64,000 bases of DNA. Origin: Dehalococcoidia bacterium. Its GTDB lineage: Bacteria > Chloroflexota > Dehalococcoidia > Plut-88900. The position numbers and the translations under genes were made by a program. Every line of letters starts with the position of its first letter. The stretch's first letter is position 1. The notes beneath the pieces were generated by a model. That model saw only the letters and a program-made list of their open reading frames with translations. It made no database searches and was not told where the DNA came from. The stretch spans positions 598,610 through 662,609 of the forward strand of contig OZ220734.1 of NCBI GenBank assembly GCA_965116945.1, read 5' to 3'. Of this stretch, positions 1,481 to 50,692 are shown piece by piece.

Positions 1481-1491
1481 GAGGGTTGCAT

Positions 1492-4972: not shown

Positions 4973-4984
4973 AGCGTGAGGGGT

Positions 4985-17725: not shown

Positions 17726-17728
17726 GGG

Positions 17729-24362: not shown

Positions 24363-24495
24363 GGGCGAGGCGCGACAGAAGGGCAGTTACGGGCCACCCC
24401 CGCTCGACCCTTCGAGTGCCTCAGGGTGAGCGGCCCCACCGCAACGGGGGGACGGAGATTTCGGCAAGACATCCAGAGAGCCCGGGGGAACGGAG

Positions 24496-25671
24496 ATGAG
24501 AAAGCCCAAATACCAGTTCTTTGCCCTGGAAGAGTACCAGGGGCGGTTGGATGCGCTAAGGGGTCGGATGGAGGAGCGGGGTATTGACGTGCTGCTGGTG
24601 AACTCGCCGGAGAACCTTTACTACATCTCGGGGTACCAGACGCCGGGATATTACTGGTACCAAACCCTGATCGTGGGGCTGGACCGGGAGCCGACCTTCG
24701 TGACCCGGCTCAACGAGGCCTCCAACATTGAGCCTTTCTCCTGGGTCGAGGACAGCAGGCCCTACGAAGACCACGAGGACTGGATTGAGCACACCAGGGA
24801 TGTGCTGACGGACCTGGGGCTGGCCGACAAGCGAGTCGGGTTGCAATACGATTCCTTTTTCCTCACTTCCCGGGACGAAAAGGGGCTGGCGGCGGCTCTC
24901 TCGGCGGCGACGTTTGTGGATGGGTCAGGGCTGGTGGAGGAGGGTCGGATGGTGAAATCGGAGCAGGAGATTGAGTATATACGGCAAGCTGCGAGGACGG
25001 CGGAGGCGGGGTTGAGGGCGGGAATAGAGGTGTGTGAGGTCGGGGTGACGGAGAACGACGTGGCAGCGGAGATACATCGGGCGCAGATTGCGGCGGGCAG
25101 CGAATACACGGGGCTGCCCATATTCATCAGGACGGGGTCCCGTGACCTGATGACACATTCCACCTGGTACCGCAACGTCCTGCAGCCCGGCGACAGTGTG
25201 ACCATCGAAATGCCGGGGTGTATCAACCGGTACCATGCGGCGACGTATCAGCAGATATATCTCGGAGACCCACCGGAGCTGCTGCTCAGGGCCCGGGAGA
25301 CAGGAGCCAAGGTGATGGCCGAAGCAAAGTCGGCGATAAGGCCGGGGGTGCCGGCGGGCGATATACACCGGCTTGTCCAGCAAAGCCTGGAAGAGGCCAT
25401 GGGCGCCGGGAGCAAGCGAAACAGTCGGGCGGCCTACTCCATAGGCATCGCGTTCGCGCCGGACTGGGGCGAGGGGCACATCATCAGCATGACGGAAGGC
25501 GAGACCCGACCTCTGCAGGCCGGAATGACCTTCCACCTGCTCGCGGGCCACGTGGCCCTGCAGGGCCTGGATGGGGTCAAGAGGGCCGTGAACAGCGACA
25601 CCATCCTGGTCACGGAAGACGGCTGCGAGACGCTGACGGACGGGCTGGAGCACAGACTTTGGGTGAAGTAA
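24496..25671 (+). CDS. M24-family metallo-hydrolase (creatinase-like), copy 3 of 3
   Basis: Tandem paralogue; a repeat module lies in the spacer. Confidence 0.8.
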   Translation: MRKPKYQFFALEEYQGRLDALRGRMEERGIDVLLVNSPENLYYISGYQTPGYYWYQTLIVGLDREPTFVTRLNEASNIEPFSWVEDSRPYEDHEDWIEHTRDVLTDLGLADKRVGLQYDSFFLTSRDEKGLAAALSAATFVDGSGLVEEGRMVKSEQEIEYIRQAARTAEAGLRAGIEVCEVGVTENDVAAEIHRAQIAAGSEYTGLPIFIRTGSRDLMTHSTWYRNVLQPGDSVTIEMPGCINRYHAATYQQIYLGDPPELLLRARETGAKVMAEAKSAIRPGVPAGDIHRLVQQSLEEAMGAGSKRNSRAAYSIGIAFAPDWGEGHIISMTEGETRPLQAGMTFHLLAGHVALQGLDGVKRAVNSDTILVTEDGCETLTDGLEHRLWVK

Positions 25672-25843
25672 GGGGCAGGCGCGAAGGAATGGCAGGGGTG
25701 GGCCGAGCCCCCCGCTCGACCCTTCGACTCCGCTCAGGGTGAGCGGCCCCACCCCAGAACGCGCTTGCAGACTATCAGGGACGGCAAGGAGGACGGCGAG
25801 GTGTGCTATTCTGCCTCTGACTATTTATCTCGGAGGTGATTTT

Positions 25844-27047: not shown

Positions 27048-28208
27048 CTACCCGAGGGCTGGAGCCGGAGAGGGTATGCGGTAGAGTTCCAGGGCGTTTT
27101 CGCCGAGGATTTTGCGCTGGTCTGCTTCGGGGAGGTCTGAGATGTGGGACTTGACCTTGCTGACGGGGTTGGTGTGGCCCTCGGGGTGGGGCCAGTCGGA
27201 GCCCCAGAGAAAGCGGTCGGTCCCGACTATCGGTGCGATGGCGCCCAGAGCCTTCTCCGTAGGCTCGGCGCTTATCCAGCACTGGCGCTTGAAGTACTCG
27301 CTGGGCTTCATTGTGAGGATGGACTCGAAGCCGAAACGGGAGAATTTGAAGTCGAGGAAGTCGAGCCAGTGGGCGATCCAAGTGCACCCTATCTCTACCA
27401 TGGAGATACGCAGGTTGGGGAATTTCTCGAAGACTCCTTCAGTCATCATGTTGGTGAAGGAGAGGAAGGGGTCTCCGAAGACCATGGACTCTACGAAGAA
27501 GTCGGGGCCGAGGCCCGGGTAGTCCGGGTAAAGGTGCTTGCCGATGTAGTCGGGGTTGAAGATGACGTGGAGGGTGACGGGCATGTCCAGGTCCTGGGCG
27601 GCGGCCCAGAATGGGTCGTAGTAGGTGTCGCCGTACTTGATACCGTTCACGGGTGCGGGGCAGATAAATGCACCTTTCATGCCGTCCTTAGCAGCACGGT
27701 TTAGCTCTGAAACCCCTAGCTCGACCTCTCTGACGGAGACGTGGGCCACGGGGTAAAGCTGATCCGGATAGTCCTTACAGAAGTCAACGAGCCAGCGGTT
27801 GTAGGCGCGGCAGTAGGCGTCGGAGATTTCGGCGTCCTGGCACTCGGCTTCCCAGCCCAGGCCGAGGCTGGGGAAAAGGAAGGTCTTATCGACGCCCTCT
27901 TCGGCGAGGTGCTTGATCCTCTCGTTGGGGTAGGCGGCGCCCGGGGCGAGGGAGGCGGCTTCGGCGTAGGGAAGGACGGCATGGCCTTCAATCCAGTCCC
28001 GGTCTTTCTCTACGGCAGCGATTCGGCCTAGGGCGCCACCGCTGTAGCCACTACTCATCTTGCCATCGATGTCCAAGTATTCGAGGCCCTGTTCGTCTAT
28101 GTTGATGCCCATGGCGCGGGAACGGTAGGCGGGGTCAATATAATCTCGCCACATGTTGGCGGGTTCGATGATGTGGCTGTCGGAGTCTACGACTGTTCCT
28201 GGTGACAT
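27048..28208 (-). CDS. Amidohydrolase-2 family metal-dependent hydrolase (ACMSD-like)
   Basis: MSPGTVVDSDSHIIEPANMW... The internal Met carries an AAGGAG RBS. The ORF's R/P-rich N-terminal 59 aa were rejected. Confidence 0.8.
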   Translation of the reverse strand: MSPGTVVDSDSHIIEPANMWRDYIDPAYRSRAMGINIDEQGLEYLDIDGKMSSGYSGGALGRIAAVEKDRDWIEGHAVLPYAEAASLAPGAAYPNERIKHLAEEGVDKTFLFPSLGLGWEAECQDAEISDAYCRAYNRWLVDFCKDYPDQLYPVAHVSVREVELGVSELNRAAKDGMKGAFICPAPVNGIKYGDTYYDPFWAAAQDLDMPVTLHVIFNPDYIGKHLYPDYPGLGPDFFVESMVFGDPFLSFTNMMTEGVFEKFPNLRISMVEIGCTWIAHWLDFLDFKFSRFGFESILTMKPSEYFKRQCWISAEPTEKALGAIAPIVGTDRFLWGSDWPHPEGHTNPVSKVKSHISDLPEADQRKILGENALELYRIPSPAPALG

Positions 28209-28225
28209 AGCAGATACTCCTTCTT

Positions 28226-29389
28226 CTAGCCGATGGCGGGAGCGGGAACGGAAAGGCCGTACATGGCGAGGGCGTTTTCGCCCAGGATTTTGTTCTGGTC
28301 GGCTTGAGAGAGTCCGGCGATATTCTCCTTGACCTTGCGCAGGGGGTCGGTGTGGCCCTCGGGGTGGGGCCAGTCTGAACCCCACATGAAGCGATCGACA
28401 CCGATCATCTCGGCCACGGCCCCGATGCCCTTTTCCACGGGCTCGGCGCTGATCCAGACCTGGCGCCTGAAATACTCGCTAGGCGTCATGGTGAGAGGCA
28501 TGTCGAAACTGAAACGGCCAGTCTTGAAGTCCATCATGTCCAGCCAGTGGAGGAGCCAGGTGCAGCCGATTTCGACCATGCCGAGCTTGAGGCGGGGGAA
28601 TTTTTCGAAGGTGCCGTCGCCCATCATGCAGGTAAAGCTGATGAGGGGGTCGGCGAAGGTCATTACGTTGTTGAAGAACTCGGGGCCGAGGCCGGTCTGG
28701 TCTTCGGGGTAAGATGAGCGGCCGGGGTAGTCGGGGTTAAGAACGACATGGAAGGTTATGGGCATATCGAGGTCCTGGGCGGTGGCCCAGAAGGGGTCGT
28801 AGTATTCGTGGCTGTAGCGGATTCCGTTCATGGGGGCAGGGCAGATGAATGCACCCTTCATGCCGTCCCTGGCAGCCCTTTCCAGCTCTTTCACACCTTC
28901 GTTGACATCCCGGACGGTTATGTGGGCAATGGGGTAAAGGCGGTCCGGGTAGGGTGAACAGAAGTCTACGAGCCAGCGGTTGTAGGCAGTGCAATATGCG
29001 GCGGAGAGGGCAGGGTCTTCGCACTCAGCTTCCCAGCCGAGGCCGAGAGTCGGGAACAGGAAGGTCTTGTCCACACCTTCCTTGTCGAGGTGTTTGATTC
29101 TGGCGTGGGGGTCGACGGAGCCAGGGGCGAAGTTCTTGATCTCGTCGTAGGGTAGGGTGGGATGTTCCATCATCCACTCTCGGGTCTGGTCTATACCTGC
29201 GATCCTACCAAGCGTGCCGCCGTTGTAGCCGATGCTCACCTTGCCATCGATGTCGAGGTATTCCAGGCCGAACTCATTAGTGTTAATGCGAAGGGCACGG
29301 TCCCGGAACTTAGGGTCCATGTACTCCAGCCAGAGATTGGCGGGTTCCATGATGTGGCTGTCGGCGTCGACGACGATGGAACGGGTCAT
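28226..29389 (-). CDS. Amidohydrolase-2 family metal-dependent hydrolase, tandem paralogue
   Basis: MTRSIVVDADSHIMEPANLW...; about 60% identical to the downstream copy. Confidence 0.8.
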   Translation of the reverse strand: MTRSIVVDADSHIMEPANLWLEYMDPKFRDRALRINTNEFGLEYLDIDGKVSIGYNGGTLGRIAGIDQTREWMMEHPTLPYDEIKNFAPGSVDPHARIKHLDKEGVDKTFLFPTLGLGWEAECEDPALSAAYCTAYNRWLVDFCSPYPDRLYPIAHITVRDVNEGVKELERAARDGMKGAFICPAPMNGIRYSHEYYDPFWATAQDLDMPITFHVVLNPDYPGRSSYPEDQTGLGPEFFNNVMTFADPLISFTCMMGDGTFEKFPRLKLGMVEIGCTWLLHWLDMMDFKTGRFSFDMPLTMTPSEYFRRQVWISAEPVEKGIGAVAEMIGVDRFMWGSDWPHPEGHTDPLRKVKENIAGLSQADQNKILGENALAMYGLSVPAPAIG

Positions 29390-29479: not shown

Positions 29480-29560
29480 CCTACGTCGATACTCGGGCCA
29501 GCGCGGGCCCCCCTCTCATACTTCGAGTGCCTCAGCATGAACGGCCCCACCTCGCGATGG
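29480..29560. repeat. Module-B repeat copy
   Basis: CCCTCTCATACTTCGAGTGCCTCAGCATGAACGGCCCC. Confidence 0.7.
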
Positions 29561-33038: not shown

Positions 33039-33139
33039 CCGGTGTTGCGGTCTCCTGTATTGCGCGTCGGGTCCGTGCAATGGGAGAAATTACCACGCAG
33101 GGGGTGGAGGCGCAAGGATGGGGTGACGATTGGACTAGC

Positions 33140-33215
33140 GTGGGCCACCCTCCCGCTCATACTTCGACTACGCTCCCGCCCGAGGCGGATCTGCGACAGC
33201 ATGAGCGGCCCCTCC
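33140..33215. repeat. Module-B repeat copy in the leuS upstream region
   Basis: CCGCTCATACTTCGACTACGCTCCCGCCCGAGGCGGATCTGCGACAGCATGAGCGG (hairpin CCGCTCAT/ATGAGCGG). Confidence 0.7.
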
Positions 33216-38218: not shown

Positions 38219-39637
38219 GTGAGGTCCGTTGAGATGCCCCCTAAGACTATGTTCGAGAAGATTTGGGATGCCCATGTGGTGCACCAGGACCCGGGGCAGG
38301 ATGCGATCCTGTATGTGGACCTGCACCTGGTGCATGAGGTGACTTCCCCGCAGGCCTTTGAGGGGCTGCGGTTGTCGGGGAGGGGGGTGCGGAGGCCGGA
38401 GCTGACGGTGGCGACGGTCGACCACTCCATACCGACATGGGAGCGCTCCCGGCCGACGGAAGACCCGATTGCGGCGCAGCAGATCGCTACGATGCAGGAG
38501 AACGCCAAGGACTACGGCCTGCCGTTCTACGACGTGCACAGCGACGGGCAGGGAATCGTGCACGTTATCGGGCCGCAGCTGGGGTACACGCAGCCGGGGA
38601 TGCTGATAGTGTGCGGGGACAGCCATACGTCGACGCACGGGGCGTTTGGGTCGATGGGTATGGCAATCGGGACCACGCAGGCGGAGCACGTGCTGGCGAC
38701 GCAGTGCGTCCAGCAGGCGAACCTGCAGACGATGGAGCTGCGGCTGACGGGGAGCCTGCCCTCGGGGGTGGGGGCGAAGGACATCATCCTGGGGATCATC
38801 GGGGAGATAGGGATAGACGGGGCGAGCGGGTATGCGGTGGAGTACACGGGCGAGGCGATACGGGGCCTTTCGATGGAAGGTCGGATGACGGTATGCAACA
38901 TGTCGATAGAGGCGGGGGCGCGAATCGGGATGGTTGCGCCGGACGAGACGACTTTTGAGTACGTGAAGGGGCGTGGGTTTGCGCCGAAGGGGGAGGCCTG
39001 GGAGGAGGCTGTTGAGAAGTGGCGCAAGCTGCCCACGGACACCGATGCCAAGTACGACCGGTTAGTCGAGATTGACGCGGGGTCGATGGAGCCGTACGTG
39101 ACCTGGGGGACGAACCCGGGAATGGTGGCGAAGGTGTCGGGGAACGTGCCTGATCCGGCGGGTATGGAGTCGGGGGCGGAGAAGGAGGCGACGGAGAGGG
39201 CGCTGCAGTACATGGGCCTCGAGGCTGGGAAGGCTATCGAGGACATCAGGATCGACCGGGCGTTCATAGGGTCGTGCACCAACTCTCGGATCGAGGATCT
39301 GCGAATTGCGGCGGAGGTCGCCAAGGGCAAGAAGGTGGACCCGAAGGTGTATGCGATGGTCGTGCCCGGGTCGTTCGTGGTGAAGCAGCAGGCGGAGCAG
39401 GAGGGGTTGGACCAGGTATTCAAGGACGCGGGTTTCGACTGGCGGGAGGCGGGGTGCTCGATGTGCCTGGGGATGAACCCCGACATTCTGCAGCCGGGCG
39501 AGAGGTGCGCGTCGACGTCCAACCGGAACTTCGAGGGGCGTCAGGGCAAGGGCGGGAGGACTCACCTTGTGAGCCCGGCGATGGCGGCGGCGGCGGCGAT
39601 TGCGGGGCACTTTGTCGATATTCGGGACTGGAGTTAG
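38219..39637 (+). CDS. leuC: 3-isopropylmalate dehydratase large subunit
   Basis: Aconitase-family motifs ([20 protein letters not shown], and the Fe-S cysteines in ...GSCTNSR...CSMC). Confidence 0.95.
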
Positions 39638-39646: not shown

Positions 39647-39850
39647 ATGAAGTTAACCGTTGTTCTCGAACCTAGCGATGAGGGCGGATACACCGTCATT
39701 GTTCCCTCCCTGCCGGGTTGCATAAGCGAAGGGGATAGTCGGGAGGAGGCGTTGACGAATGTGAGGGAAGCGATAGGGCTTTGCCTGGAGCTAACCGAAT
39801 TCGACCACGTAAACAAAGCAAATGATGAGATAGTTTCTCTGACACTCTAA
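39647..39850 (+). CDS. HicB-like (UPF0150) small protein inserted between leuC and leuD
   Basis: MKLTVVLEPSDEGGYTVIVPSLPGCISEGDSREEALTNVREAIGLCLE. Confidence 0.7.
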   Translation: MKLTVVLEPSDEGGYTVIVPSLPGCISEGDSREEALTNVREAIGLCLELTEFDHVNKANDEIVSLTL

Positions 39851-39882: not shown

Positions 39883-40500
39883 ATGCAAGCATTCAAGACT
39901 TTAACCGCAACCGTGGCCGTTCTGGACCGATCGAATGTGGATACGGACCAGGTTATTCCGAAGCAGTTCCTGAAGAGGATCGAGCGGACGGGATACGGGG
40001 AGTTCCTGTTCTTTGACTGGGGTCGCAAGGAGGATGGGTCGGCGGACCCGGATTTTGAACTGAATCTGCCCCAGTACCAGGGGGCGGGGATCCTGGTGAC
40101 GGGGCCGAACTTTGGGTGCGGGTCATCCCGGGAGCATGCGGTGTGGGCGATTCACCAGCACGGGTTCCAGGCGATAATTGCCCCGTCCTTCGCAGAAATC
40201 TTCCACAAGAACTGCTTCCAGAACGGGTTGTGTCCCGTATTGCTGGAGGAGAAGCAGGTGTCGGAGATCATGGAAAGGGCTCGGGGGAAGGCGCCCGGGT
40301 CATATTCGCTGACCATTGACCTGGAATCGTGCGTACTCTTCGATAGCGAAGGCTTCGAGCTTCCCTTTGTAATCCACCAGGACAAGGCCACGCACGATTT
40401 CCGGCGTCGGTGCCTGTTGGACGGGTTGGACGAGATAGACCTGACGCTGCAACACGAGGATGCGATTCTCGCCTACGAAAAGGCCCGCGGGATAGCCTAA
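39883..40500 (+). CDS. leuD: 3-isopropylmalate dehydratase small subunit
   Basis: 205 aa LeuD/aconitase swivel domain; follows leuC. Confidence 0.92.
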   Translation: MQAFKTLTATVAVLDRSNVDTDQVIPKQFLKRIERTGYGEFLFFDWGRKEDGSADPDFELNLPQYQGAGILVTGPNFGCGSSREHAVWAIHQHGFQAIIAPSFAEIFHKNCFQNGLCPVLLEEKQVSEIMERARGKAPGSYSLTIDLESCVLFDSEGFELPFVIHQDKATHDFRRRCLLDGLDEIDLTLQHEDAILAYEKARGIA

Positions 40501-40512
40501 AGGGGGTCGGTC

Positions 40513-41991
40513 ATGGACTGGCGGGAGGACTACAAGCGGAAGCTCGGGTCTCCGGAGGATGCGGCCGCCCGCGTGAAGTCGGGGGACCTGGTGCACACAG
40601 GCCTCCTGCCCATGCCGCGGTTGATTGCGGATGCGATAGTCGGGCGTCGGGAAGAATTGGGGCACCTGGACGTTACGATGGTCGAGCCGGAGTACGATCC
40701 GGGCTTCCTGGACAACGCTTTCTCGGACAAGTTTTCCGTCACTGTCGAAATCCACATAGGCAGTGTGGCGATCGATGCGATGGACGAGAAGAGGGTCGAC
40801 TACTCGCCGGTGCTGTTTTCCACGTGGTTCAAGCCGGTGACCGACCCTCGGCCTAACTTCCGGACGCCGGACGTGTTCCTGTGCACGGTGTCGCCGCCCG
40901 ACGAAAACGGGTATTGCAGCTTCGGGGCGGACCTGTGGAACAAGCACACCCTTGCCAATATCTCCGGCACGGTCCTGGCGGAGGTGGATGAACGGTTCAT
41001 CCGCACTTACGGGGACAACCACATCCACGTTTCCGAGATAGACGCCTTCGTGGAAAACACGCCCCCGCCGATGCACGACGAGGAGTTGGAAGGCATCATC
41101 GAGGCCATTGAGGAGGCGGACAGACGGGAGACGCTCAGGGAGATCGCGGGAGCTCTGGAGTTTGAAAGGCGTCGGGACTTTGTGCCGCAGCTGGCGGACC
41201 TTGAGTTATCGCAGATGCGGCAGTGGGCGGGGTTCTACGCGGGCCTATCGGACCCGGGCCCCGGGCCCCGGCGGATTGCCGAGTATGCTTCCGAGATGGT
41301 GCCGGATGGCGCGACCATCCAGCTCGGGACGGGGACGCCTTCAACGCTTCTGCCGAGCCTCGGGGCGTTTGACGAGAAGCATGACCTGGGCATTCACTCG
41401 GAGATGGGCGCTCCGGGGATGATAGACCTTATAGAAAAGGGTGTTGTGACGGGCAAGTACACCAACACTCATCCCGGGGTGGCCCGGCTCAGCGCGCTGA
41501 CAGCTACGAAGATCAGCGAGCAGAAGTGGGCGGAGTACAACCCCAAGCTGGAACTGCTGGAATCCCACGACGTGGTGAACATTGCGGCGATATCGCAGAT
41601 TGACAACATGTGCACGATCAACAACGCGTTGTCGGTGGACCTGTACGGGCAGATAAACTCGGAGACGGTGTTCGGGGGACGGCTGGTGGCGGGGACCGGG
41701 GGGCAGACGGAGCTTCACATCGGGGCTACGCAGTCAAAGGGGGGTCGGGGGATAATCCTGCTAAGGTCCACGGCATTAGGGGGCTCGATGTCCCGGATAG
41801 TGCCTCAGCTGGAGGAGGGGGCGATCGTGACCATACCCCGGACCTTCGCCGACATAGTGATAACGGAGTACGGGGTGGCGCAGCTGATGGGGAAGTCGAA
41901 CCGGCAGAGGGCGGAGGAGCTGATAAGCATTGCGCACCCGGACTTCAGGGCGGAGCTGCGTCGGGAGGCGGAGAGGATGATGTGGCCGTAG
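40513..41991 (+). CDS. Acetyl-CoA hydrolase/transferase family protein (4-hydroxybutyrate CoA-transferase-like), copy 1
   Basis: 492 aa; N- and C-terminal AcetylCoA_hydro domains (...GTGTPSTL...GGQTELH...). Confidence 0.8.
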   Translation: MDWREDYKRKLGSPEDAAARVKSGDLVHTGLLPMPRLIADAIVGRREELGHLDVTMVEPEYDPGFLDNAFSDKFSVTVEIHIGSVAIDAMDEKRVDYSPVLFSTWFKPVTDPRPNFRTPDVFLCTVSPPDENGYCSFGADLWNKHTLANISGTVLAEVDERFIRTYGDNHIHVSEIDAFVENTPPPMHDEELEGIIEAIEEADRRETLREIAGALEFERRRDFVPQLADLELSQMRQWAGFYAGLSDPGPGPRRIAEYASEMVPDGATIQLGTGTPSTLLPSLGAFDEKHDLGIHSEMGAPGMIDLIEKGVVTGKYTNTHPGVARLSALTATKISEQKWAEYNPKLELLESHDVVNIAAISQIDNMCTINNALSVDLYGQINSETVFGGRLVAGTGGQTELHIGATQSKGGRGIILLRSTALGGSMSRIVPQLEEGAIVTIPRTFADIVITEYGVAQLMGKSNRQRAEELISIAHPDFRAELRREAERMMWP

Positions 41992-41999
41992 GGGTAGAG

Positions 42000-42075
42000 G
42001 CACGGCATCACCCTCACCCTAACCCTCTCACGCCTGAAGCGCATCTTCGACCCATCAAGGGAGAGGGGACCGGGG
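42000..42075. repeat. Module A-prime repeat variant at the duplication junction
   Basis: ATCACCCTCACCCTAACCCTCTCACGCCTGAAGCGCATCTTCGACCCATCAAGGGAGAGGGGA. Confidence 0.7.
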
Positions 42076-42157
42076 TACAAGACCGATCCTGAATCAGGTC
42101 GGTTACTAAGCAGCGATTTCTAAAAGGCCCGCGGGATATCCTAAAGGAGGTCGGTCA

Positions 42158-43634
42158 TAGACTGGCGAGAGGACTACAAGCGCAAACTCGGGTCTCCGGA
42201 GGATGCGGCGGCGCTGGTCAAGTCGGGGGACCTGGTACACACAGGATCTCTGCCCATACCCCGGCTGATTGCGGATGCAATAGTTGCGCGTCGGGAGGAG
42301 TTTGAGCATCTGGACGTCAAGATGGACGCCCCAGAGTACGACCCCGGATTCCTGGACAACGCCTTCTCTGACAAATTCTCCGTCACCGTCGAAATCCACA
42401 TAGGCAACGTGGCAATCGATGCGATGGACGAGAGACGGATAGACTACTCGCCGGTATTGTTTTCCACGTGGTTCAAGCCGGTGACCGATCCCAGGCCGGA
42501 CTCTCGGGCGCCGGACGTGTACCTGTGCACCGTATCGCCGCCCGATAAGAACGGTTACTGCAGCTTCGGGGCGGACCTGTGGAACAAGCACACGTTTACT
42601 AAGATATCTCGAACCGTTTTGGCTGAAGTCGACGAACGGTACATTCGCACATTTGGCGACAACTACATTCACGTATCGGAGATAGATGCCTTTGTGGAGA
42701 ACACTCCTCCACCGATGCTGGACGAGGAGCTCGACGGGATCATTGCGTCGATAGGCGAAGCTGAGAGGCGGGAGACGCTGAGGGAGATTGCGTCGGTGCT
42801 GGAGTTTGACAGGCGTCGGGACTTTATTCCGCAAGTCGCCGACCTAGACTCAGCCCAAATGCGACAATGGGCGGCGTACTATGCGGGCCTGTCGGACCCG
42901 GGCCCGGACGTGCGTCGGATGGCCGAGTACGTTTCCGAGATGGTCCCGGACGGCGCGACGCTACAAATTGGTATGGGGACCCCTTCAACCCTGCTGGCGA
43001 CTCTGGGCACCTTCGACAAGAAGCATGACCTGGGGATTCACTCGGAGATGGGTGCGCCGGGGATGATCGACCTTATAGAGAAAGGCATTGTGACAGGCAA
43101 GTACACAAACACACATCCGGGTGTGGCAAGGCTCAGCGCCCTGACGGCCACGAATATCCGCGAGCAGAATTGGGCGGAATACAACCCCAAGCTGGAACTG
43201 CTGGAGTCCCGCGACGTGGTGAACATTGCGGCGATTTCGCAGATCGACAACATGTGCACGATAAACAACGCTTTGTCGGTGGACCTGTACGGGCAGATCA
43301 ACTCGGAAACGGTGTTCGGGGGCCGGCTGGTGGCGGGGACCGGGGGGCAGACGGAGCTTCACATCGGGGCTACGCAGTCGAAGGGGGGTCGGGGGATCAT
43401 CCTGCTAAGGTCGACGGCTTTAGGGGGTCGATGTCCCGGATAGTTCCACAGCTGGAGGAAGGGGCGATCGTGACCATACCCCGGACTTTCGCCGACATCG
43501 TGATAACGGAGTACGGGGTGGCGCAGCTAATGGGGAAGTCGAACCGGCAGAGAGCGGAGGAGCTGATAAGCATTGCACACCCAGACTTCCGGGCAGAGCT
43601 GCGTCGGGAGGCGGAGAGGATGATGTGGCCTTAG
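42158..43634 (+). pseudogene. Degraded tandem duplicate of the acetyl-CoA hydrolase/transferase gene (start ATG to ATA; a 1-nt deletion frameshift near the 3-prime end)
   Basis: GGTCGGTCATAGACTGG here versus GGTCGGTCATGGACTGG in copy 1. ORF 42322-43443 ends ...LGGRCPG* where copy 1 reads ...LGGSMSRIVPQ. The remaining C-terminus continues in the +1 frame (43170-43634). Confidence 0.75.
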
Positions 43635-43661
43635 GGGTGGTTACCTCTTTGCGTCCTACGT

Positions 43662-44339
43662 ATGGCTAAGCACGACTATATTTTTGTGGATGAGTCGGGA
43701 GACCCGGGGTACAAGATCGACCCTGAATCGGGCCAACTACTAAGCAGCAGTTTCTATATCGCCGCCGCCTTGCATTTGAGTGATGACGCCTTTGCAGGCC
43801 TGAACAAGCACATGGCGGCGTTCAGGTACTACTCGGGGCTGAACAGGGAGTTGAAGATTCCGCCGTCTCGGGAGGAATTTTCAAGGCTTCTGGGCCCGGT
43901 AAAGGTTATGGCGGAGGCGGGTGCGGACATTCGGGCGTCGGTAGTGTACTTGGACAAGCGCAAATACAACGGCAGATTTCTGAAGGGTGGAAAGGGCAGA
44001 CCTCCCGAGCCGTTCAAGTTCAGAAACTACATCCTAAGGCTTCTGCTGGTTCACCACTTCCATATATACGGTCTCATTTCAGGCCAATATGACCTTGTAC
44101 TCGACAGGGTTCCGATAGACAGAGCAATGATTGGTGGGATACGGAACGGGTTGGTCAGAAACAGAAATATTCCCTCTCCAGCATATATCACTCACGCCGC
44201 ATCAATTTACGTGGAAGGTTTACAGGTAGTGCATCACATAGCGAACGGATTTCAAAGTGCGGTGGAGGGGTTGGAAGTCCCTGCGGAGCTTTCCTTTGTC
44301 AGTGCGCGGGACATAACCACAAGACAGCGGATATTCTGA
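43662..44339 (+). CDS. DUF3800 family protein
   Basis: N-terminal YIFVDESGDPG, the hallmark start of DUF3800 proteins (recalled). Confidence 0.55.
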   Translation: MAKHDYIFVDESGDPGYKIDPESGQLLSSSFYIAAALHLSDDAFAGLNKHMAAFRYYSGLNRELKIPPSREEFSRLLGPVKVMAEAGADIRASVVYLDKRKYNGRFLKGGKGRPPEPFKFRNYILRLLLVHHFHIYGLISGQYDLVLDRVPIDRAMIGGIRNGLVRNRNIPSPAYITHAASIYVEGLQVVHHIANGFQSAVEGLEVPAELSFVSARDITTRQRIF

Positions 44340-44348
44340 ACAAAAGCT

Positions 44349-44396
44349 GGGCTAGGTCGGACCTCCATGCTTCGGGAGGTCTGCCTAGCCCACAAG
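44349..44396 (+). terminator. Imperfect hairpin downstream of the DUF3800 gene
   Basis: GGCTAGGTCGGACCTCC...GGAGGTCTGCCTAGCC, followed by a weak T-rich tract. Confidence 0.3.
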
Positions 44397-44456
44397 AGGT
44401 TGTAACTTAATGCAACCTGCCTTTTAATTTTGGTGCATAAACCTGAGGCTGTCAAC

Positions 44457-45938
44457 ATGGACTGGCAAGAGGAATATAAGCGTAAGCTGGTTTCGGCGGA
44501 GGAGGCTGTGGGGCTGGTGAAGTCGGGGGACAGGGTGGAGATATCCATCTTCCCCACGCCATCGCTGTTGCCTCCTGCGCTGCATGAGCGCAGGGAAGAG
44601 CTCCGAGGGGTCGAAACGGTGATGCCGGAGCCCGCTTATCCGATGCCGTGGTTTGAGCCGGGGTACGATGAGTCGTTCTCCAGCACGCTGGAGGTCCACG
44701 TGGGGATGGGTGGTGCGAGGCCGGTCGTCGACGAGAAAAGGGCGGACTACTACCCTATCCTGTTTTCGCTATGGCACAAGCCCCACTTTGACAGGCCCAA
44801 TACTGCGCCGCCTATCGACGTTTTCATGTGCACGGTGTCGCCGCCTGACAAGAACGGGTATTGCAGCTTCGGTGGGCATTTGTGGAACAAGCGGGTGCTG
44901 GCGAGGCATGCAAAGGTGGTGCTTGCTGAGGTGGACGATACGTTCATCAGGACACACGGGACAAACTACATCCACATTTCGGAGATAGACCGGTTCGTAG
45001 ACAACTCTCCCAAGCTGATGCCCGACGAGGAGATGGAGCAAATCATCCGGGCTATGCCGGACGAGGAAGGGAGCCGGGAGCTGAGGGCGGTGGCTGAACG
45101 AGTCGAGGTCGAGCGTCGGTACGATTTTATCCCCAAGCTGGCCATGATGGACGGGGCCACCATCCGGGGGTGGGCGCAGGTCTACGGATACCAGAGTGAA
45201 ACGGAGCCAATGGCGCTGACTATAGGCCAGTATGTGGCCGAACTGATACCGGATGGGTCGTGCTTACAGGTAGGCGGAGGGACGCCGTCCACGTTGATCC
45301 CCGGGATGGGGGTGCTGGACGAGAAGCAAGACCTGGGGGTGCACTCTGAGATGTCCGCTCGGGGGTTGGTGGAGCTGGTCCGGAAGGGCGTGGTCACCGG
45401 GAAGCGGAAGAATTTTCATCCGGGCAAGTACATAGTCTCGGCGCTTACGGCTTGCACGCAGGACGAGATCCGGTTCACCCACAATAATCCGATGTTCGAG
45501 CTCTATGACTCCCACTACGTGGTCAATATCGCCAACGTATCGGCCAACGACAACATGGTGTCCATAAACAGCGCCCTGGCCATAGACCTGACGGGCCAGA
45601 TCACGGCCGAAACGGTGTTCGGGGGAAGGCTGATAGCTGGGACGGGAGGACAGCCGGAGCTTCACATGGGGGCGATCAACTCCCGAGGGGGTCGGGCGAT
45701 CACGTGCTTGAGGTCGACGGCGATGGGTGGGGTGATGTCGAGGATCGTTCCCCAGCATGACGCGGGCACGGCGATCACGGTGACCCGGGGTTTTGCGGAC
45801 TACGTGGTGACGGAATACGGTGTGGCCAGCCTGCTGGGCAAAACCTTCCGTCAAAGGGCGGAAGAGCTAATCAACGTCGCACATCCTGACTTCCGGGCCG
45901 AGCTTCGCCAGGAAGCGCAGAAGCTCTTCTACCCGTGA
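44457..45938 (+). CDS. Acetyl-CoA hydrolase/transferase family protein, copy 3
   Basis: Start at MDWQEEYKRKL (the ORF's 9-aa extension was rejected). About 45-50% identical to copy 1. Confidence 0.8.
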   Translation: MDWQEEYKRKLVSAEEAVGLVKSGDRVEISIFPTPSLLPPALHERREELRGVETVMPEPAYPMPWFEPGYDESFSSTLEVHVGMGGARPVVDEKRADYYPILFSLWHKPHFDRPNTAPPIDVFMCTVSPPDKNGYCSFGGHLWNKRVLARHAKVVLAEVDDTFIRTHGTNYIHISEIDRFVDNSPKLMPDEEMEQIIRAMPDEEGSRELRAVAERVEVERRYDFIPKLAMMDGATIRGWAQVYGYQSETEPMALTIGQYVAELIPDGSCLQVGGGTPSTLIPGMGVLDEKQDLGVHSEMSARGLVELVRKGVVTGKRKNFHPGKYIVSALTACTQDEIRFTHNNPMFELYDSHYVVNIANVSANDNMVSINSALAIDLTGQITAETVFGGRLIAGTGGQPELHMGAINSRGGRAITCLRSTAMGGVMSRIVPQHDAGTAITVTRGFADYVVTEYGVASLLGKTFRQRAEELINVAHPDFRAELRQEAQKLFYP

Positions 45939-45945
45939 GCCGCTG

Positions 45946-47427
45946 ATGGACTGGCAAGAGCACTACAAACGGAAGCTGGTCAGCACTGACGAGGCCGTGA
46001 AGCTCGTGAAGTCGGGGGACAGGGTGGAGATCGCCATGTCACCTACGCCCTCGGTGTTGCCGCCAGCGCTGGGGAAGCGCTGGCCCGAACTCAAGGGCGT
46101 TGAGACTGTCATGTCCGAGCCGGCCTACGACATGCCGTGGTATGAGCCGGGACAGGAGGGGTCGTTATCGACTACGCTAACCGTCCATGTGGGGATGAGC
46201 GGGAGTGGGATGATGATCGACGAAAGGCGAGGCGACTATCTGCCTTCACTGTTCTCCCTATGGCACAAGCCGTTGGACGACCGCCGCACTGATGCTCCAC
46301 CCGTCGATGTGTTTATGTGCACGGTGTCGCCGCCGGACAAGAACGGGTATTGCAGTTTCGGGCCGTACCTGTGGTACAAGCGGCAGCTGGCCAGGCACGC
46401 CAAGGTGGTGCTGGCGGAGGTCAACGATACCTACATCCGGACGTATGGAACCAACTACATCCATGTATCCGAGATTGACCGGTTTGTAGACAACTCGTCG
46501 AGGGCAATGCCCGATGAAGAGATGGAGGCGATTATCCGGGGCATGGAGGACGAAGAGGCGAAGGAGGAGCTAAAGGCCATATCCAGCCGGATAGAACCAT
46601 TGAGGCGCTACGAGCTAATTCCGAAGCTGACGAAGATGGAAGCCCAGGCGATGCGGCGATGGGCTGAATCGATGGGGTTTCAAAGTGAGCCGGAGCCCGT
46701 GGCCCTGGCCATATGCCGTCAGGTCGCAGAGCTTATTCCCGATGGGTCTTGCCTTCAGGTCGGGGGTGGGACGCCGTCCACGCTGCTGCCGAGTCTGGGG
46801 GTGCTGGATGAAAAGCGTGACCTAGGGTTCCATTCGGAGATGTCTCCGAGGGGTGTAATAGACCTGGTGCGGAAAGGAGTAATGACCGGCAAGCGAAAGA
46901 ATTTCCATACGGGGAAGTATGTCTCCTCATCGCTTTCCAACTGCACACAGGATGAGATCCAGTTCGCGCACAACAATCCGATGTTCGAGCTAAGAGATAC
47001 GTCATACGTGGTGAACATAGCGAACGTGGCATCTAACAACAACATGGTCTCAGTGAACAGCGCGATAGCGATAGATCTCACGGGGCAGATCACTGCGGAG
47101 ACGGTGTTCGGGGGGAGGTTGATAGCGGGGACCGGGGGCCAGCCTGAGCTTCACATGGGTGCGTTAAGCTCCCGAGGGGGTCGGGCGATCACGTGCCTGA
47201 GGTCCACGGCGATGAAGGGGGTGGTGTCGCGTATCGTGCCGCAACACGAGGCGGGGACTGCGATAACTGTGCCTCGGGGGTATGCGGACTACGTGGTGAC
47301 GGAATACGGTGTGGCCAGCCTGTTCGGCAAGACGTTCAGGCAGAGGGCCGAGGAACTGATAAGCGTCGCTCACCCGGATTTCCGCGCCGAATTGCGTCGG
47401 GAAGCGCAGAAGCTGTTTTATCCGTGA
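45946..47427 (+). CDS. Acetyl-CoA hydrolase/transferase family protein, copy 4
   Basis: MDWQEHYKRKL...; close paralogue of copy 3. Confidence 0.8.
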   Translation: MDWQEHYKRKLVSTDEAVKLVKSGDRVEIAMSPTPSVLPPALGKRWPELKGVETVMSEPAYDMPWYEPGQEGSLSTTLTVHVGMSGSGMMIDERRGDYLPSLFSLWHKPLDDRRTDAPPVDVFMCTVSPPDKNGYCSFGPYLWYKRQLARHAKVVLAEVNDTYIRTYGTNYIHVSEIDRFVDNSSRAMPDEEMEAIIRGMEDEEAKEELKAISSRIEPLRRYELIPKLTKMEAQAMRRWAESMGFQSEPEPVALAICRQVAELIPDGSCLQVGGGTPSTLLPSLGVLDEKRDLGFHSEMSPRGVIDLVRKGVMTGKRKNFHTGKYVSSSLSNCTQDEIQFAHNNPMFELRDTSYVVNIANVASNNNMVSVNSAIAIDLTGQITAETVFGGRLIAGTGGQPELHMGALSSRGGRAITCLRSTAMKGVVSRIVPQHEAGTAITVPRGYADYVVTEYGVASLFGKTFRQRAEELISVAHPDFRAELRREAQKLFYP

Positions 47428-48704
47428 GCCCCCGCCTGCCTGCTTTCCTTTCGTTCGTGTTCCGGCGGTCGCTGCCCAACGACTACCTGACTACTCAGCT
47501 GGAAAAGGCGTGTGCCGCAAATGTCTGTCCCATCTGCACCTTCGAAGGGGAGGCGCGTTACAACTGGATCTGGAGCTTCCTGTGGGAGCATGTGAACGAC
47601 CCCGACATCCGGGAGGAATTCATAGCTGCCGGGGGGATGTGTCGGGCGGACCTGTGGCGCTCGGTAGAGGTGGCGCGGAACGTAATCAAGAACTCGCTGG
47701 GTGTGGCGATGGTATTCCAGCACCTGGTGAAGGTAGTTACGAGGGCGCTGGAGAGTGAGCGATCAGGGGAGAGGTGGATTGGGACGGCGCCCTGGAGCTT
47801 CAAGTTGGGGCAAGGGTGCCAGGCGTGCGAGACGGCGTCGGGGGCGGGGAGGCGGGGACTGGCACGCTTGCTGCTGGCTGCCACGGTAGAGAAGCCGCCC
47901 GGTTGGCTCGAACCAGGGTTTCCGTTGTGCAGAGGGCATTTTGAGGCATTAGTCTCATCAACGCGAAGACCCGAGGAGCGGCCCCGGTTGTACGAGCTTC
48001 AAAATTCGGGCTTATCGAGGTTTTCGAAGGGGGGCGGCTCGGGGGTGGGGGATAGGCGGGTTGAAGCGGCGATTCTGCCTGTTCCAGGTCTATTTCCGGT
48101 ACCGATAAGGTCGGAGAGCGTTTATGTGAATGCGTCGGAGAGGTGCCCGGTGTGTGAGCGGCTGCAACGGTCGGAAGGGGACTCGGCTTTTCCCGAGTCG
48201 GGGCGGGTGAATCTCTGTTTAGCACACTACCGAGGGACAAGGTCACCTGGCAGCAGGCTCTTTGCCCATCTTGATCCTGCGGAGGAGTCGGGGGGGCAGG
48301 GTGAGGTAGATGACTGTCCAATGTGTTTGCAACGGAGAGAGCTGGAGGAGCGGGCGCTGGAGGAGGCAGTATCCCAGATCAAAGATTTCGGGGCGCGGGA
48401 CCTGTTGTGCCTCGGGCATCTGACATGGGTTCTGAGGGAGATGGGTGGGGAGGGGAGCGGGGCATTCCTGAAGGACCAACTGGAAAGATTGAATACGCTT
48501 ATAGGGGAACTGGACGATTTCATTGCGCTGCACGACTACCGGTACGGAAAGCAGCCGGCGGAGAACCCCGACTCGCCCTACAGGTGGGCTTTGCGGTTCC
48601 TGTCGTCGGAGCCGAGCATTTACGCCCATAACCTGCCGTTGGGGGGCTCGGAAAGATTTCTGCCGAGCAGGAGGGGGAACCTGGCGTCGGGGCGGCGTTC
48701 TTGA
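47424..48704 (+). CDS. Cys-rich hypothetical protein with four CxxC...C.H modules (putative C3H zinc-binding repeats)
   Basis: CPICTF...MCRADLW; CQACET...LCRGHF; CPVCER...LCLAHY; CPMCLQ...LCLGHL. Putative GTG start overlaps the upstream stop (GTGA). The N-terminal 77 aa of the ORF overlap copy 4 and were rejected. Confidence 0.45.
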   Translation: MSPRLPAFLSFVFRRSLPNDYLTTQLEKACAANVCPICTFEGEARYNWIWSFLWEHVNDPDIREEFIAAGGMCRADLWRSVEVARNVIKNSLGVAMVFQHLVKVVTRALESERSGERWIGTAPWSFKLGQGCQACETASGAGRRGLARLLLAATVEKPPGWLEPGFPLCRGHFEALVSSTRRPEERPRLYELQNSGLSRFSKGGGSGVGDRRVEAAILPVPGLFPVPIRSESVYVNASERCPVCERLQRSEGDSAFPESGRVNLCLAHYRGTRSPGSRLFAHLDPAEESGGQGEVDDCPMCLQRRELEERALEEAVSQIKDFGARDLLCLGHLTWVLREMGGEGSGAFLKDQLERLNTLIGELDDFIALHDYRYGKQPAENPDSPYRWALRFLSSEPSIYAHNLPLGGSERFLPSRRGNLASGRRS

Positions 48705-48768: not shown

Positions 48769-49116
48769 ATGACAACAGCGCCAACTTTGCCCACAATCCA
48801 CGTAACGGAGCAGGCTGCAAAGCAGATGCAGAAACTTGCTTCCAGGGAAGGCTACGACGACTTTGGCCTCCGAATGTCGGTCAAGGGGGGTGGTTGCTCG
48901 GGGCTGACGTACAAGCTGGGCTTCGCCGAGACGGCAAAGAAGGACGACAAGGTCATAGAGGAGCACGGGGTAAAATTGTTCGTGGACTTCAAGAGCATGT
49001 TCTACTTGGGGGGCACGGTCCTGGACTTCTCCGGGGGGCTGAACGGCAAGGGCTTCGAGTTCACGAACCCTAACGCCAAGACGACGTGCGGGTGCGGGAA
49101 CTCGTTCTCGGTGTAG
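48769..49116 (+). CDS. IscA/HesB-family iron-sulfur cluster insertion protein
   Basis: C-terminal ...TTCGCGNSFSV and CSGLTYKL motifs. Confidence 0.85.
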   Translation: MTTAPTLPTIHVTEQAAKQMQKLASREGYDDFGLRMSVKGGGCSGLTYKLGFAETAKKDDKVIEEHGVKLFVDFKSMFYLGGTVLDFSGGLNGKGFEFTNPNAKTTCGCGNSFSV

Positions 49117-49190
49117 ACGCAAGCCACATAGACGAGGCGACTCGGGGGCCTTCCAGTTGATTGGAAGGCCCCTTTCTTCTACCATCTATT
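49041..49190. repeat. Direct repeat copy 1 (iscA 3-prime end plus its terminator)
   Basis: About 150 bp and about 92% identical to 49502-49652; the two copies flank the HicB-like gene. Confidence 0.8.
49144..49180 (+). terminator. Intrinsic terminator after iscA
   Basis: GGGGGCCTTCC AGTTGATT GGAAGGCCCC followed by TTTCTTCT. Confidence 0.6.
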
Positions 49191-49211
49191 TCTCTAAGGT
49201 AGTGGAGGGCG

Positions 49212-49424
49212 ATGCACAAATACGAGGTCATCATCTATTGGAGCAATGAGGACGGGGCATTCGTGGCCGAAGTCCCGGAGCTTCCCGGTTGCGCGGCCCA
49301 CGGAGATACTCAACAAGCGGCCCTGGAGCAGATCGGACAAGCTATAGATCTGTGGCTGGAAACGGCGCGAGAGTTTGGCGATTCGATCCCCGAACCGAAG
49401 GGCGAACGGCTGATGCTGGCGTAG
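49212..49424 (+). CDS. HicB-like (UPF0150) small protein
   Basis: MHKYEVIIYWSNEDGAFVAEVPELPGCAAHGDTQQAALEQIGQAIDLWLE. Confidence 0.7.
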   Translation: MHKYEVIIYWSNEDGAFVAEVPELPGCAAHGDTQQAALEQIGQAIDLWLETAREFGDSIPEPKGERLMLA

Positions 49425-49501
49425 GGACTCGCGACGGACACCCCTTTTTAGGGGGTGGAATGGGCTTGAGGCTCTTAGCGTTTTTGACTCTCATCAAGCC
49501 G

Positions 49502-49652
49502 ATTGAACGGCAAGGGTTTCGAGTTCACGAACCCTAATGCCAAGACAACGTGCGGGTGCGGGAACTCCTTCTCGGTGTAGACTCAAGCAACATATACGAG
49601 GCGACTCGGGGGTCTTCCGGTTGATTGGAAGGCCCCTTTCTTTTAGGATTTG
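49502..49652. repeat. Direct repeat copy 2 (diverged duplicate of the iscA 3-prime end and terminator)
   Basis: ...AACGGCAAGGGTTTCGAGTTCACGAACCCTAATGCCAAGACAACGTGCGGGTGCGGGAACTCCTTCTCGGTGTAG...GGGGGTCTTCCGGTTGATTGGAAGGCCCCTTTCTTTT. Confidence 0.8.
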
Positions 49653-49681
49653 ATATACAAATTCTTGGGAAGACGAGAGCC

Positions 49682-50692
49682 ATGACTCAGACTGCAGAAT
49701 TCACATCTACCGAAATAGCCCTGTGTGCCGCAAGGGAAGGCGTTGCCCTCGCCCGGCCCCCGATGCCCGGCATTTTGCGCATGACGGGGGAGGATGCGCT
49801 GGACCTGGTGGACCGGCTTTCGACGAATGAGGTCGTTGAAAGGCCCGTGGGTTCGGGGGTGGTGACGGTGCTGACGACCAACAAGGGTCGCGTGGTAGAC
49901 CTGCTGACGGTGCTGTACGCGGCCGACCACTGGCTGGTACTCACCTCACCCGGGAACCAGCAGAAGGTCGTCGATTGGATTGAGGAGTTCACGTTCGGGG
50001 AGGAGATTGAACTGGAGGATGTGACGGAGGAGAAAGGGTTTATCACGGTGGTCGGGCCCAGGGCGGAAGACAAGGTGAGAGAAGTATCGGGGGAGGATGC
50101 GCGTGAACTTGCGGACTATCACTGCGTTGAGGCAACGATAGCAGGGGTGGAAGTGATTGTTTATAGGGGCGGGGTGGGGATGGAAAGGGCGTTTAACGTA
50201 ATTGCGCCCTCGGGTGGGGTGGAAGCCATAAGCTCGGCGTTGGTCGGGGCGGGGGTGGTGGAGATGGATGCAGAGACATACGAAGTGTTCCGCGTAGGGG
50301 CGGGGGTCCCGGTTTTCGGCGCGGAGATGGGTGAGGAAGTGAACCCGTTGGAGGCAGGGCTATGGGAGGCGGTGAGTTTTACCAAGGGGTGCTACGTGGG
50401 CCAGGAGGTCGTGGCACGGCTGAACACATACGAGAAGGTGAAGCGGCACCTGTCCATGCTGAGCTTCGAAGACGGCGCAGCGCTGGAGCCCGGGACGACC
50501 TTGACGGTTGATGGGAAGGAAGCGGGGAAGATCACGTCGGTGGCGCCGGTGGCGGTGTCGGGGCGGAGGGCTGCGCTGGGGTACGTTAGGAAGAAGTACG
50601 CTGAGCCGGAAGCGAAGTTGATCGCTGAAACAGCCGATGGCACGGTGGTTTGCCAGTTTGTTGAGAGGGTCGGGAGACGGGAGGAGGGCTAG
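49682..50692 (+). CDS. ygfZ: YgfZ/CAF17-family folate-binding Fe-S repair protein (GcvT-like fold)
   Basis: KGCYVGQE signature; adjacent to iscA. Confidence 0.8.

Follow-up and report, generated by a model that had tools for sequence, protein, structure and literature searches.

How did a small gene for a HicB-like antitoxin come to lie between iscA and ygfZ in a Dehalococcoidia genome, and why is it bracketed by two copies of the end of iscA and its terminator? This question is raised by one locus in the 64-kb stretch of DNA analysed in the present study, which is termed the window herein and to which all coordinates refer unless a relative is named; the loci of relatives carry numbers beginning with L. 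The original prediction described a repeat of ~150 bp and ~92% identity on both sides of the HicB-like gene, and this repeat is real. The two copies, 49040-49182 and 49504-49646, align without gaps over 143 nt with 132 identical positions (92.3%, own count), and a repeat-finding scan returned nearly the same pair (49040-49181 and 49504-49645; 142 nt, 93%, ungapped). When the region was compared with the whole window by self-BLAST, the two repeat copies only were recovered (E = 8e-57), and thus the similarity is neither a chance match nor a repeat dispersed within the window. The extent of the repeat requires a small correction. It had been placed at 49041-49190 and 49502-49652 with ~110 nt of iscA, whereas 77 nt of iscA are measured within the 143 nt; the slightly wider coordinates are explained by ~8 further bases of weak similarity on the right. 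The features of the locus are as follows.

48769-49116, plus strand: iscA-type gene for Fe-S cluster assembly, 115 aa, intact (Pfam PF01521 Fe-S_biosyn, 1.2e-20).
49040-49182, plus strand: repeat copy A, the functional 3' end of iscA (77 nt) followed by spacer, terminator and T-run (66 nt).
49144-49173, plus strand: terminator hairpin of copy A, then a T-run (terminator scan; -24.7 kcal/mol, z = -4.5).
49183-49208, plus strand: remnant of IG', a duplicated intergenic region of foreign type, with a GGAGG Shine-Dalgarno motif as its 3' end (26/26 identical to L002 3553-3578).
49204-49208, no strand assigned: junction of the hicA deletion, with 5-nt GGAGG microhomology (comparison with L002).
49212-49424, plus strand: hicB-like antitoxin gene, 70 aa, without a hicA partner (HicB_lk_antitox 7.5e-10, UPF0150 1.8e-8).
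49425-49503, plus strand: right end of the cassette, a fast-diverging spacer of 79 nt with a small hairpin near 49439-49457 (lineage identities; fold of the spacer).
49504-49646, plus strand: repeat copy B, a non-functional 3' fragment of iscA (77 nt; the upstream 271 nt are absent) followed by spacer, terminator and T-run.
49608-49637, plus strand: terminator hairpin of copy B, of the local type, with two G.U pairs (terminator scan; -21.3 kcal/mol).
49647-49681, plus strand: native iscA-ygfZ intergenic region (31/36 identical to the empty site of L084).
49682-50692, plus strand: ygfZ-like gene for a folate-binding protein, 336 aa, intact (Pfam GCV_T 2.4e-35, GCV_T_C 2.3e-7).

The iscA protein of the window is 90-96% identical to the iscA products of L002 and L004, and homologues of its ygfZ product are named YgfZ by JGI. 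In the coding part, copies A and B differ at four positions, all of them synonymous third positions; in the hairpin stem, two differences replace a C-G and an A-U pair by the wobbles U.G and G.U. The terminator and T-run that had been recognised in the second copy are present, as the predicted hairpin of copy B listed above confirms. No Rfam family and no tRNA gene was found in the window. For annotation, the second iscA end should be treated as a pseudogene fragment and the hicB of the window as an orphan antitoxin.

In Dehalococcoidia, ygfZ is conserved directly 3' of iscA. The closest GTDB species representative is L004, a Dehalococcoidia metagenome-assembled genome with a YgfZ 62% identical to that of the window. 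Relatives closer than L004 were found in ENA and Logan metagenome assemblies only, and no JGI metagenome contig matched the 3' end of iscA in an exact-pattern scan. A search of relatives for an empty site, proposed together with the original prediction, was successful in five lineages, namely L084 and L091 (both 87% identical to the window in YgfZ), L088 (78%), L090 (63%) and L004. In these lineages iscA is followed by ~100 nt and then by ygfZ, and the repeat sequence is single-copy. Compared with the single copy in L084 and L091, copy A is identical at 132-134 of 143 positions and copy B at 133 of 143. The outer flanks, left of copy A and right of copy B, each match the empty site of L084 at 31 of 36 positions; the inner flanks match it at 16 and 9 of 36 and are not contiguous. 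Because the outer flanks are contiguous in the empty sites and the repeat is single there, the structure in the window is an insertion relative to the empty site.

Filled sites with the same junctions were also observed in five lineages: the window, L002, L085-L087, L089 and L092. L003 represents the same organism as the window (99.9% identical). All four of the other filled lineages carry hicA 11 nt upstream of hicB. In L002, hicA lies at 3738-3989, hicB at 4001-4213 and copy B at 4293-4435, and the insert between the copies comprises 740 nt with hicA and hicB only, compared with 321 nt in the window. The filled site thus occurs in three forms: complete, without hicA, and without most of copy B. 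The last form is that of L085-L087 and needs an extra deletion and a rearrangement in that lineage. The filled L092 and the empty L084 and L091 all come from one sample. L003, L092 and L002 are low-coverage long-read contigs with frameshifts, in which single-base details are uncertain. Overall, we favour the reading, with a probability of roughly 0.6, that a hicAB cassette was inserted with a long target duplication, was exchanged through the repeat, and later lost hicA in the lineage of the window. The insertion with target duplication that was originally proposed therefore stands with regard to the empty sites and the single repeat copy in five lineages; the inserted unit, however, was originally hicA-hicB and not a lone hicB.

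The evidence for this reading has several parts. First, the lone hicB of the window is the outcome of a later deletion. Compared with L002, 419 nt are missing from the window, comprising the rest of IG', a ygfZ fragment (ygfZ'), the upstream region of hicA and all of hicA. L002 carries GGAGG at 3574-3578 and again at 3993-3997; the match of the window extends over 26 nt of the left flank and 8 nt of the right flank, with GGAGG common to both. The comparison indicates a deletion of 419 nt between these two motifs, and no hicA was detected in the window by tblastn with the HicA of L002 (best E = 0.4). As a result, hicB lies ~40 nt downstream of the iscA terminator and has kept a GGAGG ribosome-binding site. 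HicA is an mRNA-cleaving toxin, which is bound and neutralised by HicB. In the relatives L002, L086, L089 and L092, HicA comprises 83 aa and matches the HicA_toxin family (Pfam PF07927, 1.1e-7), and the position of its gene 11 nt upstream of a hicB of 70 codons is the usual order and spacing of type II HicAB systems, from which the window differs by the absence of hicA. The HicB of the window matches PF15919 (7.5e-10) and PF21748 (UPF0150, 1.8e-8), both above the cut-offs, with its N-terminal domain only. Since the profile is covered at positions 1-59 of 123, the protein is predicted to consist of a toxin-binding-type N-terminal domain without the C-terminal DNA-binding domain. The HicB protein is identical in the window (and L003), L002 and L001 despite 8-26 synonymous differences between the genes. 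The expression of the orphan gene is uncertain because its native upstream region is deleted. At most, the orphan HicB could act against HicA toxins from other loci; alternatively, its gene may simply be in decay. The former role might resemble the anti-addiction model for orphan chromosomal antitoxins (Saavedra De Bast et al. 2008, reviewed in PMC2654758), in which a chromosomal antitoxin left after toxin loss could neutralise related incoming toxins.

Second, the duplication was originally longer than the ~150 bp first proposed and reached into ygfZ. In L002, L086, L089 and L092, the ~185 nt between copy A and hicA comprise a diverged intergenic region, followed by a decayed ygfZ start (GTGACCCAG...). 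When this stretch was aligned with the 5' end of ygfZ, including its Shine-Dalgarno site, in L089 and L090, z-scores of 8.7-9.8 were obtained and none of 500 shuffles reached the score; with the ygfZ start of L004 the similarity was not significant (z = 1.9), in contrast to the closer L089 and L090. The translation of the stretch in L086 reads VTQPTNHLDSEWVLRAARE, and the YgfZ N-termini read MTQTADRLDSESALRAARE in P0022 and MTQTADRIDSESALRAARE in P0031. On the other side, to the left of copy B, the similarity to iscA weakly continues for about a dozen bases or more in alignments, and this edge appears by eye as decayed iscA. Because a ygfZ start follows copy A and weak iscA similarity precedes copy B, the original duplication is estimated at ~260-300 nt, reaching into the first 25-30 codons of ygfZ; it comprised at least 77-90 nt of iscA, the 66 nt of the terminator region, ~40 nt of intergenic region and ~75-90 nt of ygfZ. 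In the ancestral arrangement reconstructed from these alignments, IG' ran into the 5' fragment of ygfZ, and only 26 nt of this left-hand remnant (49183-49208) survive in the window. An identity above 90% is left only in the 143 nt on which selection acts in all lineages, namely the iscA C-terminus and the terminator. In other words, a target duplication that seems to measure 150 bp can be the core that survives of an older and longer one.

A duplication of this length might also have arisen in two steps, through a ~300-bp tandem duplication of the junction between the iscA 3' end and the ygfZ 5' end, with hicAB captured later by illegitimate recombination. The same final structure would be produced, tandem duplications are common, and the junction would be tolerant of insertions. 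However, two rare events at one point are required, and the duplication without hicAB was present in none of the ten loci examined, where the original prediction had named just such a structure, or a repeat identity much lower than the ~92% measured here, as evidence against itself. We regard the two-step route as unlikely compared with the insertion of hicAB together with a long target duplication.

Third, the two copies are not simple in-situ duplicates. Copy A is followed by CTACCAT, as in the intergenic regions of the distant L004 and L090, whereas the TTAGGAT type follows copy B and is found in the empty sites of the close relatives L084, L088 and L091. The ygfZ fragment is of the RLDSES/RIDSES type seen in L089 and L090, and the window's own ygfZ is of the FTSTEI type. 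In the copy A terminator of the window, the C, A and T states at three stem or loop positions recur in L090 and, in part, in L004. By these comparisons, copy A in its right part, together with what follows it, is of the foreign L090/L004 type and not of the local one. In addition, some states are alike in both copies within a genome and unlike between genomes (CCT/CCG, ACGAG/ACTAG, and the loop GATTGG/GATAGG), which indicates exchange between the two copies. The damage in copy B varies among lineages. In L092, it encodes NPDPEMTCGC in place of NPNAKTTCGC, a non-synonymous change, and its edge carries two amino-acid changes in L002 and a one-base deletion in L089. The idea that copy B is kept as a coding sequence, for which the purely synonymous differences in the window might speak, was rejected given the non-synonymous changes in L092 and the edge damage in L002 and L089. 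The four synonymous differences rather suggest that recombination or conversion produced the copy B of the window from a functional iscA end, and that too little time has passed since then for damage to accumulate.

Fourth, the cassette is far less diverged between lineages than the host genes beside it. Between L086 and L089, the proportion of synonymous differences is 0.218 in hicA and hicB together and 0.584 in ygfZ (Fisher p = 1.4e-10), and the non-coding stretch after copy A differs at 14.6% of positions compared with 58% of ygfZ synonymous sites (p = 1e-21). Between L002 and L089, the nucleotide identity is 93.5% in the stretch after copy A, 98% in hicA and 75.5% in ygfZ, the ygfZ of L002 having a frameshift and being compared as nucleotide identity only. 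Between the window and L002, dS is 0.19 for hicB and 0.60 for iscA. For the window and L086 the synonymous divergence is comparable, at 0.31 for hicB and 0.42 for ygfZ. The synonymous divergence of hicAB could be lowered by purifying selection or by codon bias, and the non-coding stretch after copy A argues against this explanation. The distribution of the cassette is also patchy: L084 and L091, the closest relatives of the window, are empty, whereas more distant lineages are filled. Moreover, the flanks of L092 are mosaic, with the upstream region nearest to L085, iscA nearest to the window and ygfZ nearest to L002. Together, the low divergence of the cassette relative to the host genes, the patchy distribution and the mosaic flanks of L092 indicate that the cassette has been exchanged between lineages at a fixed site, and homologous recombination through the conserved repeat is the most likely vehicle. 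The insertion is also old and did not take place in this genome; the same junctions in five lineages speak against a recent or local event. The spacer after hicB is 73-82% identical between lineages, compared with 92-98% for hicA and hicB, and the model proposed below accounts for this divergent 79-nt segment only loosely.

Descent alone might be considered as an explanation for the same distribution, with one ancient insertion in a common ancestor, empty sites restored by repeated precise loss and no transfer. Direct repeats of at least 143 nt make precise deletion easy, and the comparable divergence of hicB and ygfZ between the window and L086 is consistent with a vertical origin of part of the distribution. 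However, when L089 is compared with the others, the cassette has diverged far less than the host genes. The sequence 3' of copy A is similar to the start of ygfZ in the L089/L090 clade and not to that of the current carriers, and at least three independent losses would be needed, given that the closest relatives of the window are empty. A strictly vertical history is therefore disfavoured and seems improbable to us, and exchange of the inserted cassette through its repeats is the reading retained.

Fifth, no dedicated mobility function was found. Tyrosine or serine recombinases, integrases and transposases were absent from the five filled loci and from within ~3 kb of them, and the neighbours at all filled loci are housekeeping genes. 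Besides the two terminator hairpins, no inverted repeats, and no terminal inverted repeats, were observed at the window locus. A transposon, an insertion sequence or a miniature inverted-repeat element was rejected on the basis of the absent terminal inverted repeats and of a duplication that is not short but at least 143 nt. An integron attC-like site in the hairpin loop was considered and rejected likewise, the loop being unlike the GTTRRRY core and the repeat being clearly derived from iscA. The cassette DNA had no match in plasmid and phage collections; viral contigs contained distant HicA relatives only (at most 49% identity).

Islands carrying integrases typically integrate at gene 3' ends, which they duplicate, as do the ssrA islands of Dehalococcoides. 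An integrase element at the iscA 3' end, supplying a replacement end and later reduced to hicAB, might accordingly be suspected here. Targeting of a 3' end with its duplication is typical of such islands, on which toxin-antitoxin genes are often carried, and the window shares with islands at tRNA and tmRNA/ssrA genes the direct repeats from the 3' end of the target gene on both sides of the insert. The locus differs in that no recombinase is present, the duplication crosses into the next gene, and the insert is only 0.3-0.75 kb. No integrase or extra gene lies between the repeats or within ~3 kb in five filled lineages, the junctions contain neither inverted repeats nor a shared core, and a duplication of ~260-300 nt over two genes, including the 5' end of ygfZ, fits a target duplication rather than a 3'-end attachment site. 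Site-specific integration is thus a poor candidate, with little probability in our view. A recent local duplication, or an assembly artefact joining strain variants, which the 92% identity of the copies might otherwise suggest, is hardly credible, given that assemblies made independently, with other samples and methods, show the same architecture (L002, L003, L085-L087, L089 and L092).

The preferred reading, an insertion of hicAB with a long target duplication, corresponds to an insertion type that has been described previously (Nobusato et al. 2000, Gene 259:99; Furuta, Abe and Kobayashi 2010, NAR 38:2428, PMC2853133). The published cases concern restriction-modification genes with repeats of 46-423 bp, often over a gene 3' end and without mobility genes, and it was proposed by the authors that the repeats allow amplification, release and re-invasion (PMC2853133). 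The structural marks of this class are an empty site in a relative, the alignment of both repeats to one copy, a repeat >30 bp, and an insert <20 kb without a mobility gene. Judged by sequence comparison, the window locus has all four and fits the class: it shares with the known cases a small addictive module, the absence of integrase and transposase, and repeats >30 bp matching a single copy at the empty site. A further mark of the class is a repeat that occurs nowhere else in the genome; in the 64-kb window, the two copies are the only ones. Several differences should be stated. The cargo here is hicAB, whereas the published cargo is restriction-modification genes; this reflects the scope of the survey rather than the mechanism, and in the literature searched restriction-modification cargo only, and no hicAB, was found for such insertions. 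The host is an uncultivated member of the Dehalococcoidia, the duplication is old, and only its conserved core is recognisable. In addition, direct comparative evidence is available here that the cassette and its inner flanks move between diverged lineages. Thus, the insertion type is extended to toxin-antitoxin genes and to Chloroflexota, and current views are not overturned; the case is a clear and instructive example of a known insertion type, and not a surprising one. It also provides a natural example, with five filled and five empty lineages, of a toxin-antitoxin pair entering and leaving a fixed chromosomal site without a dedicated recombinase.

Herein, we propose the following course of events. 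A type II toxin-antitoxin cassette of hicA and hicB would have entered the iscA-ygfZ site of an ancestor of the lineage, or of a relative, accompanied by the target duplication of ~260-300 nt outlined above, from the iscA 3' end through the terminator and intergenic region to the first 25-30 codons of ygfZ. Because the target was duplicated on insertion, iscA on the left and ygfZ on the right would both have remained intact, each with its own terminator and upstream region. Decay would then have affected the outer parts of the duplication: on the left, the ygfZ' fragment; on the right, the iscA' fragment at its left edge. From the patterns of sharing, we infer that RecA-type recombination uses the conserved 143 nt as homology arms. 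A crossover between the two copies would delete the cassette and restore the empty site, and recombination with DNA of a relative would install or replace the cassette. Where a crossover falls inside the 143 nt, the left copy would carry the right-hand sequence of the donor and the right copy the left edge of the donor. Such recombination through the arms would result in the patchy presence, the low divergence of the cassette and the mosaic copies. In the lineage of the window, the deletion of 419 nt between GGAGG motifs finally removed hicA with its upstream region and left an orphan hicB.

Template switching in replication, the repair of a break, a circle that integrated and an earlier tandem duplication are all conceivable origins of the first insertion; both inner junctions have decayed so far that a microhomology or recombinase site is no longer readable. 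The original suggestion that the locus exemplifies how such small genes spread is borne out in part, the repeat accounting better for later spread and loss by homologous recombination than for the first insertion. More tentatively, and with considerable doubt, the cassette together with the gene ends that it carries (the decayed ygfZ start on the left, the iscA end and terminator on the right) might be regarded as a mobile unit free of any recombinase. Recombination between the repeats would release a circle of hicAB and one hybrid repeat, re-entry into any related genome by homologous recombination in the 143 nt, whether of the circle or of a linear fragment taken up from a relative, would recreate the duplication each time, and the toxin-antitoxin pair would penalise loss; the hsdR-linked arrays described below would reflect the same process, repeated at a different target. 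No circular or excised form of the cassette was seen. If true, this would represent the cycle of release and re-invasion proposed by Kobayashi's group for restriction-modification genes, which was never demonstrated by them.

The nearest hicAB relatives in other genomes (L093-L102) are arranged in a different context. They form stacks of DUF433-hicA-hicB units upstream of an entire hsdR, and a copy of the 5' end of hsdR follows every unit. By analogy, these hsdR-linked arrays suggest that the insertion process might be general in these communities. Since the nearest hicAB relatives sit directly upstream of hsdR, the spacer after hicB was also tested as a remnant of the hsdR 5' end, and this origin is not claimed here (collinear alignments with z of at most about 2; 23-44 of 500 shuffles scored as high).

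Finally, a promoter-like motif was observed across each terminator. Its -35 element, TTGAT(A/T), lies in the hairpin loop, and its -10 element reads TACCAT in copy A and TAGGAT in copy B; the consensus is matched at 9 of 12 positions in L002 and at 8 of 12 in the window (own count). If this motif were active, one might speculate that the duplication gave the cassette a copy of the ygfZ promoter.

Several features of the hicA-hicB cassette inserted between the iscA-ygfZ repeat copies A and B have been revealed by comparison of the lineages that carry it. First, the spacer downstream of hicB shows only 73-82% identity between lineages, while next to it hicA and hicB reach 92-98%, and the non-coding stretch 3' of copy A (84-93.5%) is also better conserved than this spacer. 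As judged from these identities, the spacer is an apparent local excess of divergence relative to the rest of the cassette. Second, the filled lineage comprising L086, L085 and L087 lacks most of copy B, together with the intergenic region and ygfZ codons 1 to approximately 16. Here ygfZ begins at GTG with a different N-terminus, MIQRADIKNLERAIGAAHE, and a local duplicate of the cassette right-end motif, ATCCAACGGGC(T/A)GAT, lies upstream of the new start. In other words, ygfZ, an essential-looking gene, appears to have gained a new 5' end out of cassette-derived sequence in this lineage. Third, a sigma-70-like promoter motif overlaps the terminators, with a -35 box, TTGAT(A/T), within the hairpin loop, followed after 17 nt by a -10 box, TACCAT or TAGGAT, immediately 3' of the T-run. 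This motif may be the ygfZ promoter, copied along with the terminator.

Window 49425-49503: spacer 3' of hicB; homologues in L002, L086, L089 and L092
L086 2955-3025: altered copy B/ygfZ 5' region; also in L085 and L087
Window 49160-49188 and 49624-49652; L002 (filled lineage) 3527-3555 and 4410-4438: sigma-70-like promoter motif overlapping the terminator

The nearest relatives of the cassette hicAB are found in other genomes (L093-L102), with HicA 81% identical. At these loci the unit order is DUF433-hicA-hicB followed by a piece of the hsdR 5' end, and one or two such units are piled 5' of a vapBC-like pair and a complete hsdR. Compared with one another or with the complete gene, the hsdR fragments show 73-99% identity. 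This arrangement looks like insertion accompanied by a long duplication of the target, repeated, at a second target.

L096 771-1412, 2978-3888 and 4821 onward: example of the DUF433-hicA-hicB/hsdR arrangement

The hicAB locus of L001 adjoins a type I restriction gene; the HicB encoded there matches the window HicB at 100% in protein but at only 87.6% in DNA. A tandem pair of an 88-nt stretch spanning the hicA start was read by eye at L001 3601-3776.

Three orphan HicB-like genes and no hicA were observed in the 64-kb window. One is solitary, with neither a hicA partner nor a flanking repeat, and sits between a leuC-like gene (38219-39637; 9 nt away) and a leuD-like gene (39883-40500; 32 nt away). 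Another, detected by tblastn with the window HicB (E = 1.7e-7 across 9542-9709), has no hicA in its neighbourhood and lies directly upstream of a glutamate-dehydrogenase-like gene (9886-11169).

Window 39647-39850, + strand: second solitary HicB-like ORF, 67 aa, MKLTVVLEPSDEGGYTVIVPSLPGC...
Window 9452-9739, + strand: third HicB-like ORF

Tandem paralogues were also observed in the window. The acetyl-CoA hydrolase/transferase-like array shows 60-96% nucleotide identity in blocks, and one three-gene and one two-gene array occupy 21906-25539 and 27048-29374. In addition, short repeats of 46-129 nt, belonging to several families with 62-91% identity, are scattered over the first half of the window and resemble REP-type or miniature mobile elements.

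Window 40478-47431: tandem array of four consecutive acetyl-CoA hydrolase/transferase-like genes
Window 1273-1640, 4974-5192, 13863-14039, 17329-17728 and 23104-23158: short dispersed repeats
Window 24386-24440, 25711-25767, 29497-29551 and 33138-33192: further short dispersed repeats
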